Part shown: piece by piece, positions 34,264-54,600 of the stretch | Layout: each line of letters begins with the position of its first letter | Numbering within the stretch: the stretch's first letter is position 1 | Assembly: GCA_041497195.1 (NCBI GenBank) | Contig: JBGQGB010000004.1 | Span: forward strand, 1,770-65,769 | From: Candidatus Doudnabacteria bacterium | GTDB taxonomy: Bacteria > Patescibacteriota > Doudnabacteria > UBA920 > 2-01-FULL-46-14 | DNA: 64,000 nucleotides | Direction of reading: 5' to 3' | Program-made: the position numbers and the translations under genes | The notes under the pieces: generated by a model | The model's database searches: none | What the model was told of the DNA's origin: nothing | The model's input: the letters and a program-made list of their open reading frames with translations, nothing else

Positions 34264-34339
34264 TGGTGCGCCCGGCAGGATTTGAACCTGCGACCCCCAG
34301 CTCCGCAAGCTGATGCTCTATCCACTGAGCTACGGGCGC
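34264..34339 (-). tRNA. tRNA-Arg (anticodon GCG)
   Basis: Reverse complement folds as GCGCCCG-TA-GCTC-AGTGGATA-GAGC-A-TCAGC-TTGCGGA-GCTGG-GGGTC-GCAGG-TTCAAAT-CCTGC-CGGGCGC-A-CCA. 7-bp acceptor, GTTCAAATC T-loop, CCA encoded. Confidence 0.8.
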
Positions 34340-35184: not shown

Positions 35185-35274
35185 GGTGGGGTGGCCGAGT
35201 GGTTTAAGGCAGCAGTCTTGAAAACTGCCATACCTGAAAGGGTATCGCGAGTTCGAATCTCGCCCCCACCGCCA
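35185..35274 (+). tRNA. tRNA-Ser (anticodon TGA), type II with long variable arm
   Basis: GGTGGGG-TG-GCC-GAGTGGTTTAA-GGC-A-GCAGT-CTTGAAA-ACTGC-[CATACCTGAAAGGGTATC]-GCGAG-TTCGAAT-CTCGC-CCCCACC-G-CCA. Confidence 0.85.
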
Positions 35275-37713: not shown

Positions 37714-37804
37714 GGCGGAGAGGATGGGATTCGAACCCATGAGGGACCTTTTAGAGTCCCGCAGTTTAGCAAACTGCTGCCTTAAACCACTCGGCCACCT
37801 CTCC
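37714..37804 (-). tRNA. tRNA-Ser (anticodon GCT), type II. 3' CC encoded, terminal A not encoded
   Basis: Reverse complement folds as GGAGAGG-TG-GCC-GAGTGGTTTAA-GGC-A-GCAGT-TTGCTAA-ACTGC-[long variable arm]-TGGG-TTCGAAT-CCCA-T-CCTCTCC-G-CC. Confidence 0.8.
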
Positions 37805-48609: not shown

Positions 48610-50397
48610 TTACAGAGATTTGGTTTTTATTTTTTCTCGAATTTTGTGGACAAAGTCTTCCAGTTTCATCGAGCCCAGATCTTTTTCCCCGTGCTGCCGT
48701 ACAGAGACGGTTTTTTCACCCATTTCTCTTTTCCCGACAATGAGCATATACGGGATTTTTTGCATTTCCGCTTCGCGGATTTTTTTGCCGATTGATTCGT
48801 TGCGCTCATCAAATATCGAGCGGATATCGGCATCGTTTAAAGTTTCCAGTATCTCTTTTCCATATTTTTCGGTTTCCTCGGAAATCGACAGGATGGCCAC
48901 TTGCACGGGTGCAAGCCAGACTGGGAGGGCTCCGGCGAAATGTTCTATCAAAATCGCAATAAAACGCTCGAGTGAGCCCAAAACCGCAATGTGCAAAATC
49001 GCAGGACGTTTTGGTTTCGCGTCTTTATCAGTGTAGACTAGATCGAAATTTTCAGGCTGATTGAAATCGAGTTGAATCGTCGTGAGCTGCCATTCTCTCC
49101 CAATCGCGTCTTTGATCATAAAGTCAATTTTTGGTCCGTAAAAAGCAGCTTCTCCTTCTTTTACAATGAAGGAAATTCCTTTTTCTTTTACTGATTGTAC
49201 GAGCTGCCTTTCTGCTTTGTTCCAAACAGCGTCGTCCCCCAAGTATTGTTTGAGGTTTTTGGGATCTCTCACCGAAATTTGAGCTTTATAGCTTTTCAAG
49301 CCAAAGTCTCTGTAGATCGTTTGGGTCAGCTCAATAGCGCGGTCAATTTCTGCCGGGAGCTGTTCGTGAGGCACGAACCAATGACTATCATCTTGAGTGA
49401 TGGCGCGAACCCGGAAGAGCCCGTTGATTACGCCGCTTTTTTCGTAACGATATACCGTGGCGTTTTCGGCTAAGCGCAAAGGGAGGTCGCGGTAGCTGCG
49501 GGGCTTGGCCAGGTATATCTGAAAGTGATGCGGGCAATTCATGGGCTTGAGAGTATATTTTTCTCCTTCGAGTTCCAAAGGCGGCATCATGGCATCGTAT
49601 TTTTGCCAATGTTTGCTTTGGATATAGAGTTGACTCCTAGCGATATGTGGGGACCAGACGAAAATTAGACCAAAACGTTTTTTTATATTGAATAAGTAAT
49701 CTTCGATGGTTTTTCGCAAGGTAAACCCTCGTGGCATTAGAAGTGGCAGGCCCGGCCCGACCGTCGGCGAGAAGGTAAACAATTCTAATTCCCGACCGAG
49801 AATTTTGTGATCCCTTTTTTTGGCCTCCCGCATCATTGTTAGATAGTTTTCCAGTTCGGTCTTATCCATAAAAGCCGCTACGTAGATCCGGGTGAGCATC
49901 GGGTTTTTTTGATCCCCGCGCCAGTACGCACCCGCCGTATGGGTGAGCTTGAAAGCATCACTCGGGATTTCGCCGATATTCTCGAGGTGGCCGCCTTTGC
50001 ACAGGTCGGCGAATTCACCGATGCGGTAAAAAGTCACTTTCTCTTCGGCCACTCCTTTGATTTTTTGCCGTTCCCCTTTGGCGATTTCTGCGATGAGGTC
50101 AGTCTTGTATGTTTGCCCCTCCTTTTTTGTCAGTTTCAAGGCGTCTTTGATTGGCAAAGTTTCCTGCGCCATGGTCAGGTTTTGTTTGATGAGTCGGCGC
50201 ATTTCTTTTTCGATTTTGGGAAAGTCGGCATCGGAAATGGGGACGGGAAAATCAAAGTCGTAATAAAAGCCAGTATCAATCACTGGCCCGATGCCGAGCT
50301 TGACCTTGTCGCCGTACAGGTTTTTGACCGCGTAGGCGAGGACGTGCGCGGCCGTATGGCGCATGTTATGCAACCAATTTTCATCATGTTTGGGCAT
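48610..50397 (-). CDS. thrS: threonyl-tRNA synthetase (N-terminal TGS domain absent)
   Basis: Begins in the N2/editing region (HTAAHVLAYAVKNLY), followed by class II motifs and a C-terminal anticodon-binding domain. 595 aa. Confidence 0.9.
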   Translation of the reverse strand: MPKHDENWLHNMRHTAAHVLAYAVKNLYGDKVKLGIGPVIDTGFYYDFDFPVPISDADFPKIEKEMRRLIKQNLTMAQETLPIKDALKLTKKEGQTYKTDLIAEIAKGERQKIKGVAEEKVTFYRIGEFADLCKGGHLENIGEIPSDAFKLTHTAGAYWRGDQKNPMLTRIYVAAFMDKTELENYLTMMREAKKRDHKILGRELELFTFSPTVGPGLPLLMPRGFTLRKTIEDYLFNIKKRFGLIFVWSPHIARSQLYIQSKHWQKYDAMMPPLELEGEKYTLKPMNCPHHFQIYLAKPRSYRDLPLRLAENATVYRYEKSGVINGLFRVRAITQDDSHWFVPHEQLPAEIDRAIELTQTIYRDFGLKSYKAQISVRDPKNLKQYLGDDAVWNKAERQLVQSVKEKGISFIVKEGEAAFYGPKIDFMIKDAIGREWQLTTIQLDFNQPENFDLVYTDKDAKPKRPAILHIAVLGSLERFIAILIEHFAGALPVWLAPVQVAILSISEETEKYGKEILETLNDADIRSIFDERNESIGKKIREAEMQKIPYMLIVGKREMGEKTVSVRQHGEKDLGSMKLEDFVHKIREKIKTKSL

Positions 50398-50400
50398 ACA

Positions 50401-50640
50401 AATATCCTTTTAATAAACAAAAAACCCAGCACAACATATTCGTTGTCTGGGATCCACCTTTGCGCAAGGCTTTGGCGGACGGTTCCACCCAGGTTCCCCC
50501 CGCCTATGAACGGGGGACTCTTAATCGATTTGCCAGAAGCTTTGAGGTTGGTGAGGTCTCATCTTGCCCCGCCGCAGCAGGACGAACGCTTTTGGTATTT
50601 GCAGTTTAAGTCGAGCCTCGGGATTTGTCAAAAAAAATAA
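50401..50640 (-). promoter_or_regulatory. probable T-box riboswitch leader of thrS (promoter, specifier region, T-box/antiterminator, terminator)
   Basis: On the minus strand: TTGACA-17-TAAACT promoter. Possible specifier context UCACCAA (ACC=Thr). T-box-like AACCUGGGUGGAACCG (cf. AAUUAGGGUGGNACCGCG). Terminator CCCAGACAAC-gaatat-GUUGUGCUGGG-UUUUUUG that competes with a CUGGG...CCCAG antiterminator. Ends 20 nt before the thrS ATG. Confidence 0.55.
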
Positions 50641-50666
50641 CCAGGGCCGCTTGGGGGCGACCCTGG
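50626..50666 (-). terminator. rho-independent terminator of the cdd-like gene
   Basis: Minus strand: GCCAGGGTCGCCCCCAAGCGGCCCTGG followed by TTATTTTTTTTG. Confidence 0.6.
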
Positions 50667-50690
50667 CAGGAAAAGCAAAACCCGCAGGCT

Positions 50691-51224
50691 TCAGAATCTC
50701 GCATGTTCCCTGCTGGCCCGTTCTCTGACCATCTGAATCGGCGGACCTGAGCGAACTCGTCGGGCATAAGGAAGCGTGTAAAGTGCTGTGACGGGCAGTT
50801 TGGCCAGACCCTCGCTATTCCAGTCAGTCTCCCGCGGCACGATCACTTTCACATCGGGAGCAAACTGCCAGAGGCGTTCCAGACACATCGCGCAAGGCGC
50901 AACCACGCGCCATCCTTGGGTATGACCGTGGTGGATGGCAATGATTGTTTCCAAGCCGTCGCCGGCCTCCTCAGCTTTGGCCAGCACCATAGCCTCTGCG
51001 CACACGGATGCTTGCCCAATTTTGCAGTCAGTTTGCAGGGCTGTGTAAGTTTCCTGTCGCCAGCCCCGGGCTGCGGCTGCGAGATGGTGAAAGTCTTGTT
51101 GGTAGCTTCCCTCAATGGCTTTGCGCGCGGCGTCACGCAGTGCCCAGTCCCTTTCCTCGATCGGGTAGAGGTTTCCTACTCTTGTAAGAAAGTCTTCGAC
51201 TAACGCAACGATCAATTCAGGCAT
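50691..51224 (-). CDS. cdd: cytidine/deoxycytidine deaminase family protein (CDA fold) with N-terminal extension
   Basis: Zinc-ligand motifs CAE (VCAEAMVLAKAEEAG) and PCAMC (PCxxC), plus the C-terminal LPVTALYTLPY typical of tetrameric cytidine deaminases. 177 aa. Confidence 0.55.
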   Translation of the reverse strand: MPELIVALVEDFLTRVGNLYPIEERDWALRDAARKAIEGSYQQDFHHLAAAARGWRQETYTALQTDCKIGQASVCAEAMVLAKAEEAGDGLETIIAIHHGHTQGWRVVAPCAMCLERLWQFAPDVKVIVPRETDWNSEGLAKLPVTALYTLPYARRVRSGPPIQMVRERASREHARF

Positions 51225-51662: not shown

Positions 51663-54600
51663 TTATGGAGTTTTCAGGCTCTCGCGCAAAAGCTCTCTCA
51701 GTTGCGTTTTGAATTCCTCTGAGCTTTCTACTGTAAAATTGGTTTTGACTTCGCGAGGCGTGCCTTCGCGGTCCGGCACCAGGAGTGAAACAGGCGTGCG
51801 CCCAGGAAATTTCGCAAATACGCCTTTGAGCTTGGTAAAAACTTGGGGCGAGGCGGCCTTGGGGATTTTAATCTTCAAAAGTTTTCCATTAGCTGCTGGC
51901 GCTGTCGGTTCCTCCGGAGGCGGAAAGTTTTCCGCACTACCCCGGTAAGGGGTTTTGGTGTTCCAGTTTTCCGGAATCGGCGCATCAATGGAGAGCATTT
52001 TTTCGACCAGGAGTTTTATCTCCCCGTCTTTTTCGGACAGCTTGCCGTACACGAGCACCATCTGGTCGTTTTCCACGAGGGTTTTGTATTCGTTGAAGAT
52101 GTTCGGAAATATTACCAATTCAATCATACTGTCCAGATCTTCAAGATTTGCAAAGCTCATTTGCTCGCCTTTTTTGGTCAGAATTTTTTGGACCCGAGTA
52201 ATGATGCCGCCCACAGTGAAAAATCGGCCTTCTTGTTCCGGCCCCAGGGTTTTTACTGGTTGGCAGTAACGCTCCAGGGTTGTTCTGTAGTTTTCCAGGG
52301 GGTGGGAAGAGACATACAATCCCAAAAGTTCTTTTTCCCAGGCCAATTTTTCTTTTTCCGTGGCCGGGGGAACAGGTTTTAGAATCAGTTCCCCATTTTT
52401 TTGGCCGTTTTGCATAAACAAGGCAGACTGGCCCAGGCTGGCTTGTCGCTGGCTGGTGCGGGCGTGGTCCAGGATACCCTCGGTATTTAGGAGCATTTGA
52501 TTGCGCTCGCCGAATTTGTCGAGACTGCCGCTTTTCACGAGCGCTTCCCAAGATTTTTTGTTGAAATTACGGGTTTTGACCCTGTGGATGAAATCCGTCA
52601 GCGACTGGAAAGCGCCGGCCTGTTTGACTTCGGCTATGATTGTGGTGATGACGTCGGAGCCGAGGTTTTTGATCGCGGAGAGGCCGAAGCGGATTTGCCG
52701 TTCGTTTATGACTGTGAATGACGCCAAAGATTCGCTCACGTCAGGAGGCAGCACTTGAATACCGAGGCTTTCGCATTCCGCCACGGCGGCCGCAATTTTT
52801 TGGTTATCGCCGGATTCGGCCGTCAGGACCGCGGCCATAAATTCGACCGGAAAATTTGCTTTCATGTAAGCAGTTTGGTACGCCACCATGGCGTATGAAG
52901 CGGCGTGGGCTTTGTTAAACCCGTAGGCGGCGAAAGGCTCAATGAGACTCCAAAGTTTGATGGCTTTTTCCGTAGCCATTCCGTTGTCGATGGCACCCTG
53001 GATGAATTTTTCTTTCTGAGCCGCCATTTCTTTGGGGATTTTTTTCCCCATGGCTTTACGCAGTTTGTCGGCTTCCTCCCAGGTATAGCCGGCCAATTGT
53101 ATAGCGATGAGTAGTACGTCATCCTGGTAGGTGATGACCCCATAGGAAAGATCCAAGATTTCTTTCATCCGCGGATCCAAATAGGAGATGAGTTTGGGAT
53201 TGTGCTTGCGGGCAATGAATTCCGGGATGGACTCCATCGGGCCTGGCCGGTACAGGGAAATCATCGCCATAATGTCAAAGATATTGGAGGGTTTCAGGTC
53301 GACTAGATATTTGGTCATCCCGGAACCGCCGAGCTGAAATACGCCAATGGTCCGGCCAGAAGCCAGCAGCGAAAAAGTTTTTTTGTTATCAAGGGGAATC
53401 CGCTGCAGGTCTACATCCAAGCCGCGGGTTTGTCGCACGATTTCCACGGCATTTCCCAGAATCGAGAGATTGCGGATGCCCAGAAAATCCATCTTCACGA
53501 GGCCCGTGTCTTCGATTGAGTACATGTCATATTGGGTGATGATATTTTGGTTGTCGGTATCCAGTTGCAGCGGGGTGAAATCAGTAAGCTTGGTCGGCGC
53601 AATCACCACGCCGGCGGCGTGAACCGAGGCGTGTCGCGCGGAACCCTCGACTTTTTTGGCGAGTTCAATGAGGTTTTGAGTTTCCGGATCCTTTTGGTAA
53701 GCTTCCCTCAGTTCCGGGGAAATGCTGAGGGCTTTTTCGATATTCATGTGGAATCCTTGTTTGCCGAAAGGAATCATTTTGGCGATACGGTCGCATTTGG
53801 AGTAGGGAACCCCCAAAGCCCGGCCCACATCCCGGACCGCGGCTCTCGCCATCATAGTGCCGAAGGTTACGATTTGCGCCACTTTGTTTTTTCCATATTT
53901 TTCGCTGACATATTGCAACACCTCATCGCGGCGGTTGTCGGCAAAATCCATGTCAATATCAGGAGGGGTCGGCCTGTACGGATTTAAAAACCGTTCGAAA
54001 GGCAATTTATACTCCACCGGGTTCATAGTCGTGATACCGAGGGCATACGCAGCGACTGAGCCGGCCGCGGAACCGCGAGTGGTGCTGATGATCCCGCGCC
54101 CCCGGGCCCAATTCACCATATCGGCGACTACGAGAAAGTAAGCGGAATATCCTTTGGTTTTAATGATTTCAGTTTCGTATTTGAGACGAGCCAGGATGTC
54201 TTCCGGGATGCGGTTGTCCTCGTAACGCTTTTTTAAGCCCTCCAGGCAGAGCTCTTCCAAATAGCTTTCCGCGGTGTACGTATCCGGGACTGGGAAGCTC
54301 GGAAAATAACGTTTGTCCAAAGTCAGCTCGAGATCAACACTGTTGGCAATTTTTACGGTATTGGCCAAAGCTTCCGGCAAATCAGGGAAAATCGCCGCCA
54401 TCTCGGCAGCTGATTTCAAATGCAGTTCCGAACCGCGCATATCCAAACGGTCCGTATCCTCTACTGTTCGGCCAGTGCCGACGCAAACCAGGATGTCCTG
54501 CGCGGCGCTGTCCGTCGGCGCCAAATAATGGCTATCATTCGTGGCCACTATTGGCAATCCCAGTTCTCGCGCAATTTTCAGCAATCCCGAGTTGACTTGG

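Follow-up and report, generated by a model that had tools for sequence, protein, structure and literature searches.

T-box leaders without Stem II and the IIA/B pseudoknot are known only for glycine (PMC11297988), and ultrashort Stem I elements that present the codon in an apical loop belong to the translational T-boxes of Actinobacteria, in which hardly any tRNA is bound without Stem II and IIA/B (PMC7583486, PMC11297988). The element described here is the leader of thrS, the gene for threonyl-tRNA synthetase (ThrS or ThrRS), in a stretch of 64,000 nucleotides (nt) from contig JBGQGB010000004.1, the whole of which is called the window. As far as can be read from the sequence, it joins the expression platform and missing Stem II of the glyQS type to the ultrashort Stem I of the ileS type, with a Thr codon and in a host from the Candidate Phyla Radiation (CPR). 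Very probably it belongs to the T-box family and controls thrS by tRNA-sensing attenuation of transcription.

The transcriptional glyQS T-boxes of Bacilli resemble this leader in several respects. An intrinsic terminator competes with an A1/A2 antiterminator, Stem II and the IIA/B pseudoknot are missing, the linker between Stem I and Stem III is short, and an RRRxG-Stem III-AA segment precedes a UGGNACC bulge, with a G.U pair closing A2. However, Stem I of glyQS is long (about 85 to 90 nt): its specifier lies in a side bulge, and distally a double-T-loop platform stacks on the tRNA elbow. Stem I in the window is ultrashort, has no platform and carries an apical, Thr-specific codon (ACC).

The translational ileS T-boxes of Actinobacteria (Mycobacterium, Nocardia; TBDB class II) also have a short Stem I whose apical loop holds the codon, with a conserved purine after it; they have no elbow-binding platform and share the same discriminator core. 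They differ in sequestering the ribosome-binding site (RBS) and in depending on Stem II (with its S-turn) and IIA/B for tRNA binding. In contrast, the leader in the window has a terminator with a U-tract, a free RBS, 10 nt in the place of Stem II and IIA/B, and a CPR host. The short-Stem-I model of TBDB was run only on Actinobacteria and on sequences already found by the Rfam model.

Classical thrS leaders matched by the Rfam model RF00230 occur in Bacillaceae, Clostridia and Chloroflexi. Among the retrieved loci, which are numbered with the prefix L, examples are L029, L031, L063, L114, L116, L118, L143, L149 and L177. They have in common with the window the gene, the ACC specifier, the UGGA bulge and the terminator logic. 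Unlike the leader in the window, which scores nothing with RF00230, they have a long Stem I, Stem II, IIA/B and an F-box, and reach 75 to 118 bits.

Anatomy of the thrS leader

The coding sequence of thrS (48610..50397; 595 amino acids, aa) lies on the minus strand, as do all leader features given below, and has a leader of about 200 nt upstream. An earlier note on this DNA had suggested a T-box leader with competing antiterminator and terminator, and that suggestion is supported by a full discriminator anatomy, by covariation in Stem III and A2, and by matches of RF00230 to sister leaders.

T-box discriminators consist of 5'-RRRxG-Stem III-AA-3' followed by helices A1 and A2, which are split by a 7-nt bulge, UGGNACC, with a G.U pair at the base of A2 (PMC7583486). 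The window has every one of these features, in the order AAGAG-(UCCCCCG...CGGGGGG)-AA and CUGGG/UGGAACC/GUCCGCC...GGUGGAU/CCCAG, with G50480.U50452. The purine motif AAGAG (50518..50522) fits the RRRxG motif that flanks Stem III. Stem III itself (50496..50517; UCCCCCG-UUCAUAGG-CGGGGGG) is the hairpin that had been noticed ahead of a T-box-like element, and the element, too, is where it had been seen, as AACCUGGGUGGAACCG at 50495-50480. The T-box sequence (50481..50495) is made up of AA (50495-50494), the 5' strand of A1, CUGGG (50492-50488), and the bulge UGGAACC (50487-50481), and agrees with the consensus AGGGUGGNACCGCG at 10 of its 13 specified bases (PMC11297988). A tRNA with UCCA at its 3' end would pair with the UGGA of the bulge. 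Helix A2 (50452..50480; GUCCGCC ... GGUGGAU) is closed by the wobble pair, which has been described as a steric sensor (PMC7583486).

The intrinsic terminator (50419..50451) consists of CCCAGACAAC-GAAUAU-GUUGUGCUGGG followed by UUUUUU, and its folding energy is -13.5 kcal/mol (RNAfold). A simple terminator scan missed it because of a bulged G in the stem. Its 5' arm, CCCAG (50451-50447), is complementary to CUGGG of the T-box sequence, as previously proposed. Since CCCAG doubles as the 3' strand of A1, the terminator and antiterminator folds are mutually exclusive, and the same strand-sharing arrangement is present in 16 leaders. For the full leader without ligand, the energy of the terminator fold is -43.9 kcal/mol versus -29.1 kcal/mol for the antiterminator fold. 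As the terminator fold is thus some 15 kcal/mol more stable, the leader is OFF by default, like classical T-boxes. The Shine-Dalgarno-like AAGGA (50409-50405) lies outside the terminator hairpin, 9 nt past the U-tract; it is unpaired with the terminator hairpin and is part of no conserved structure, and no RBS-occluding sequestrator was found. Because AAGGA is not sequestered, translational control of thrS is unlikely.

Upstream of the leader there is a sigma-70-type promoter (50603..50631) with TTGACA at 50631-50626, a 17-nt spacer and TAAACT at 50608-50603, as the earlier note had it. It matches the consensus at 10 of 12 positions and is the sole promoter-like site in 50200-50900, where 0.3 would be expected by chance. 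Both hexamers are kept in L081 and L082, and L205 has TTGACA-17-TACACT. From the position of the promoter, transcription would start at about 50596.

Stem I (50595-50533; 63 nt) comprises the basal helix P1, a 7-base-pair hairpin with a 4-nt loop (P2) and a 5-base-pair specifier hairpin (P3). The 5' strand of P1, CCAAAAGC (50588..50595), begins at about the first transcribed base and pairs with GCUUCUGG (50533..50540) in both the minimum free energy and the centroid folds. Equivalent helices of differing sequence are found in L082 (CCAGUUGC/GCAUCUGG), in L002 (CUUUUCU/AGAGAAG) and, by eye, in L205 (UGAAGC/GCUUCA). MAFFT placed the P1 5' strands of L082 and L002 out of alignment, so P1 is based on folding and sequence reading and not on a formal pair count. 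P2 (50566..50583; GUCCUGC-UGCG-GCGGGGC) is predicted by folding. It is kept in L081, where a U.G pair has become C-G and the loop is new, and in L205-L208 (CCCCGC-CUCG-GCGGGG in L205), and is missing from L082 and L002. The changes seen were one-sided only and lend P2 weak support.

P3 (50543..50561; UGAGA-CCUCACCAA-CCUCA) carries the Thr codon ACC (50552-50550) in its apical loop, next to the conserved purine A50549; this is the UCACCAA context (50554-50548) that had been picked out as a candidate specifier. In L205 the specifier loop is CCCAACCAA, in which the bases 5' of the codon vary and ACC-A-A is constant. ACC-A-A is likewise invariant in the lineage of the window (ACC-A-C in L082) while neighbouring loop bases vary. 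Unconstrained folding of the 5' part gave P1 enclosing P3 in the window, L081, L082 and L002.

A Stem I that folds and shows ACC in its specifier loop is therefore present and is backed by covariation; its absence, together with that of an Infernal match, would have refuted the earlier suggestion, and only the match is missing. There is no distal loop, and the kink-turn (K-turn) is at best degenerate. No long Stem I with an AG bulge and a distal loop, which form the elbow-binding platform, was found in this leader. G.A and A.A pairs can form between P1 and P3 in the window, with P2 inserted on the bulged strand, and the key G of the K-turn is replaced by C in L081, L082 and L002. A textbook K-turn surrounds the hairpin in other short leaders (L051, L056, L103, L140, L187 and L192).

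The linker from Stem I to the discriminator, read directly, is CAAAUCGAUU (50523..50532). Since it is only 10 nt long, there is no space for Stem II or a IIA/B pseudoknot, and neither a Stem II with an S-turn nor IIA/B was found in the leader. At the linker position several sister leaders have, by eye, a compact, pseudoknot-like segment with an F-box-like GCGUUA. The linker of the window also includes a palindrome, AAUCGAUU (50523-50530), which is lengthened to 10 nt in L081 (CAAUCGAUUG) and is not found in L082 or L205; it could be a coincidence or a site for self-pairing of two RNAs.

The known T-box mechanism suggests how such a leader would bind tRNA, sense its charging and act on thrS. 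The nascent RNA, begun at the predicted start, would fold the tiny Stem I, with P1 enclosing P2 and P3, and the apical loop of P3 would present ACC to the GGU anticodon of tRNA-Thr. Ten nt downstream of Stem I, the standard discriminator (AAGAG, Stem III, AA, A1, the UGGAACC bulge and A2) would follow. If the tRNA is uncharged, its 3' end would pair with UGGA in the bulge, the A1/A2 antiterminator would be stabilised and RNA polymerase would enter thrS. If the tRNA is charged or absent, the A1 3' strand CCCAG would join the stabler terminator hairpin and transcription would stop at the U-tract.

Conservation, covariation and model searches

The leader is also carried by L081 (ThrS 81% identical) and L082 (74%), and the exact architecture of the window is found in L205-L208, which were retrieved through DnaE. 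All six retain the promoter, P1, P3, RRRxG, Stem III, the T-box sequence and the terminator, with compensatory changes. In Stem III of L081, for example, CCCCC/GGGGG has become CCUCC/GGAGG. The counterpart of AAGAG is GAGCG in L081 and AAGUG in L082 and L205, and metagenome leaders have AAGAG, AAGCG, AAGUG or GAGUG; RRRxG is kept in 12 of the 12 leaders that possess Stem III.

Covariation in the discriminator was counted over 12 leaders, in columns set by the helix ends. Paired cells made up 96.4%, versus 72% after shuffling, and the covariation score was 0.768 versus 0.287, a value that none of 500 shuffles reached. Sliding the partners by one to three columns lowered pairing to 33 to 62%. 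Six of six counted pairs in Stem III change on both sides (98.6% of cells paired), as do four of five in A2, and A1 covaries across variants. The pair closing A2 is G.U in six of these leaders, A-U in three and G-C in two. For P3, MAFFT threw 7-nt and 9-nt loops of the specifier region out of register, and the count was therefore limited to the 9-nt class. In 10 such leaders 86% of cells are paired versus 66% after shuffling (0 of 500 shuffles reach the score), and three of the five pairs show changes on both sides.

The core GGTGGNACC is not significant by itself, with four occurrences in the window where 1.4 were expected and six of 100 shuffles reaching four; the case thus rests on the entire arrangement. 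A DNA pattern of specifier plus T-box sequence, which did not include RRRxG, helices or association with thrS, matched 120 metagenome stretches. In 17 of them thrS is the next gene on the same strand, 11 with a short Stem I like that of the window and six of classical form. Three more real discriminators stand at contig ends and the remaining matches are due to chance. No real one precedes another gene, so that the association with thrS is exclusive.

A search by structure, for UGGNACC flanked by complementary A1 and A2 strands, covered 80 thrS loci from named genomes and returned 12, of which 11 have a following T-run. The variable base of the bulge is A in all 12 of these thrS discriminators. 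Seven are among the 16 loci labelled as CPR, L004 and L039 are metagenome-assembled genomes (MAGs) with uninformative or doubtful labels, and L029, L031 and L063 are classical. A first scan of the 80 loci for GGTGGNACC, within 500 nt of the tblastn match, had missed L002, L004, L030, L044, L049 and L056 because A1 differs or the open reading frame (ORF) starts further upstream. About 30 similarly reduced thrS leaders were found in all. Those from named genomes belong to CPR (Gottesmanbacteria, Parcubacteria, Saccharibacteria and 'Patescibacteria group'), except for two MAGs with uninformative or doubtful labels.

The gathering score of RF00230 (93 bits) is strict, as only two of six classical thrS control leaders with a long Stem I pass it; L116, a classical leader that fails, reaches 75 bits. 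Sister short leaders score 40 to 44 bits (E 5e-7 to 7e-6) in alignments that run through Stem III and the T-box sequence, and these significant sub-threshold scores tie the short-leader group to the T-box family. A covariance model (R1) was built from seven discriminators of other contigs, with the window, L081 and L082 excluded. It found 50445-50525 on the minus strand at full length with all pairs standard (39.9 bits, E 2.3e-7), the sole significant site in the 128 kb searched. A second R1 match, at 53028-53101 inside dnaE, was rejected as noise (E 1.1).

Taken by its sequence, the leader is a genuine, strongly reduced member of the T-box mechanism class and one of a varied group of miniaturised thrS T-boxes in CPR. 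A bolder reading, which is quite possible and is put forward tentatively, is that thrS mini-T-boxes are widespread and previously unannotated in CPR, and that the version of about 150 nt in the window senses charging co-transcriptionally by anticodon and 3'-end contacts alone, with no elbow platform, Stem II S-turn or IIA/B.

Weighing the evidence

Several points weigh against the leader being a working T-box of this kind. The Infernal scan with RF00230 that the earlier note had named as a check gave no match to the window, either at the gathering score or at E ≤ 10 on 321 nt, and L081 and L082 likewise went unmatched with the limit relaxed to E ≤ 1 to 10. The pattern used to collect the metagenome leaders came from the window, so that the 12-nt core and CACCAMCC are common to them by construction, and the helix ends for the pair counts were picked by eye. 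In the lineage of the window the K-turn at the base of Stem I is at best degenerate. In the characterised examples tRNA is hardly bound by a truncated Stem I that lacks Stem II, and an elbow-binding platform is required for transcriptional T-boxes (PMC7583486, PMC11297988); on that basis, function of the leader in the window is not guaranteed. L209 (6960-7030) and L211 (7600-7900), with DnaE 69 to 72% identical and the same dnaE-thrS synteny, have no T-box leader, and because such close relatives do without it the leader is dispensable. No tRNA-Thr gene is present in the window or in any retrieved locus.

The missing affinity would have to come from some source, and it may be that the RNA is only part of the sensor, with the absent tRNA contacts replaced by P2 or by a trans-acting partner, for instance a protein that binds the K-turn or RNA in another way. 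Weak K-turns in T-boxes can be stabilised by proteins of the L7Ae family (PMC7583486), and the window, L081 and L205-L208 all retain P2. However, L082 and L002 do without P2 despite an otherwise common architecture. Nor is there a candidate protein at the locus, where the upstream ORF of 177 aa has no Pfam match and is missing between dnaE and thrS in L205. A sensor divided in this way is rather unlikely.

The absence of distal Stem I, Stem II and the pseudoknot together, and the relatives L209 and L211 that manage without a leader, would also suit a T-box remnant, in which tRNA sensing was lost with the modules that hold the tRNA, and what is left, the discriminator and terminator, attenuates constitutively or is simply a structured leader. 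Decay, however, would not hold ACC-A fixed in the apical loop while the surrounding stem covaries, nor would it leave the UGGA of the bulge intact in all 12 cases, or preserve RRRxG, across lineages whose ThrS proteins are 42 to 58% identical. A remnant is improbable on these grounds.

A 13-codon ORF, MRPHQPQSFWQID (50521-50562, minus strand), overlaps the specifier hairpin, with its AUG at 50562 in the GAUGAG junction and its UAA just before Stem III, and ribosome stalling on it could in principle control the terminator. It is present in the window and in L081, where the stop is UGA. Such leader-peptide attenuation was rejected as very improbable: the peptide has no Thr residue and is read in a frame other than that of ACC, and of 16 short leaders eight lack an ORF that starts with AUG and spans ACC, while the frame varies in the others. 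The AUG follows from the GAUGA-type junction sequence, and the ORF is probably a by-product of RNA motifs.

In E. coli, ThrRS binds a mimic of the tRNA-Thr anticodon arm in its own thrS leader, and an operator of this kind would fit a thrS gene with hairpins in its leader, but it was rejected as scarcely credible. What the conserved loop presents is the codon ACC rather than one of the anticodons GGU, UGU and CGU; the 3' half is conserved as a terminator-linked T-box discriminator, and the RBS lies in no conserved structure.

If charging is indeed sensed by the anticodon and 3'-end contacts alone, the view that a transcriptional T-box has to contact the elbow and that Stem II is indispensable to a short Stem I would be overturned. 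That view comes from structural and kinetic work, by which a long Stem I is needed to seize tRNA at its elbow quickly enough, while short ones function only in translational T-boxes aided by Stem II and the pseudoknot. Given a conserved, covarying, terminator-coupled T-box without these modules, either two contacts suffice (with a slow polymerase, pausing or a high tRNA concentration) or a compensating factor exists. T-box regulation would also reach into CPR, a large radiation of reduced genomes. The standard annotation threshold of RF00230 misses the entire reduced thrS group. Natural minimal scaffolds of this kind would be a useful basis for engineering tRNA-responsive switches. A literature search of incomplete coverage found no paper linking T-boxes with CPR or Patescibacteria and no description of terminator-type T-boxes with a truncated Stem I; a prior description is possible.

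Host, locus and other thrS leaders

The host is placed in CPR (Patescibacteria) by the sequence matches of ThrS and of a second marker, DnaE, the CPR-like host that the earlier note had allowed for. The closest named relatives of ThrS are from Roizmanbacteria (58% identity) and Gottesmanbacteria (52 to 57%). DnaE is 73% identical to that of 'Parcubacteria group bacterium GW2011_GWA2_51_12' and 54 to 60% identical to those of Doudna-, Kerfeld-, Uhr- and Saccharibacteria. ThrS of the window has an editing domain (tRNA_SAD), a class II core and an anticodon-binding domain; the N-terminal TGS domain is missing, and the protein begins in the editing domain.

The gene order dnaE then thrS is kept in the lineage matched by DnaE. 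The terminator of the upstream 177-aa ORF (50640..50667, minus strand) has a U-run that enters the -35 hexamer of the thrS promoter, an arrangement kept in L081. Elsewhere in the window there are genes for tRNA-Arg(GCG) (34264-34339, minus strand), tRNA-Ser(UGA) (35185-35274, plus strand) and tRNA-Ser(GCU) (37714-37804, minus strand).

L210 (7001-7276), another relative with DnaE 69 to 72% identical, has a different leader of 275 nt, with a hairpin loop UACCACC and a terminator and without a UGGNACC bulge. From the differences in L209, L210 and L211, the element has been gained, lost or remodelled at the family level.

A second reduced design of thrS T-box was seen in L002 (330-420), L056 (about 1340-1470), L004, L030, L044 and L049, from Saccharibacteria, Gottesmanbacteria and 'Patescibacteria group'. 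It has no Stem III, and A1 has diverged to GAGA/UCUC or UGGA/UCCA instead of UGGG/CCCA. The terminator hairpin encloses the entire A1-bulge-A2 element, and its base (AAGACC/GGUCUU followed by U7 in L056) contains a conserved purine motif, AUUAAG. The switching logic of this design must differ from classical strand competition; one possibility is that docking of the AAG motif on the tRNA-bulge duplex melts the base of the terminator.

Stem III has seemingly been lost from some short thrS leaders (L051, L135 and L191; L051 reads ...GGAAUUAAGAUAAGCAUUGGGUGGAACC). Long insertions in Stem III or A2 are found in L082, L139, L155 and L192, although the discriminator is generally presented as the T-box part that does not vary.

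ThrS of the Gottesmanbacteria locus L002 (P0017; 760 aa) has an extra N-terminal YbaK/tRNA-editing-like domain (PF04073), and that of L004 looks similar. In addition, a tRNA-Val gene (GAC or CAC) lies directly upstream of thrS in L001, L005, L021, L114, L143 and L149, which are unrelated lineages with or without a T-box.

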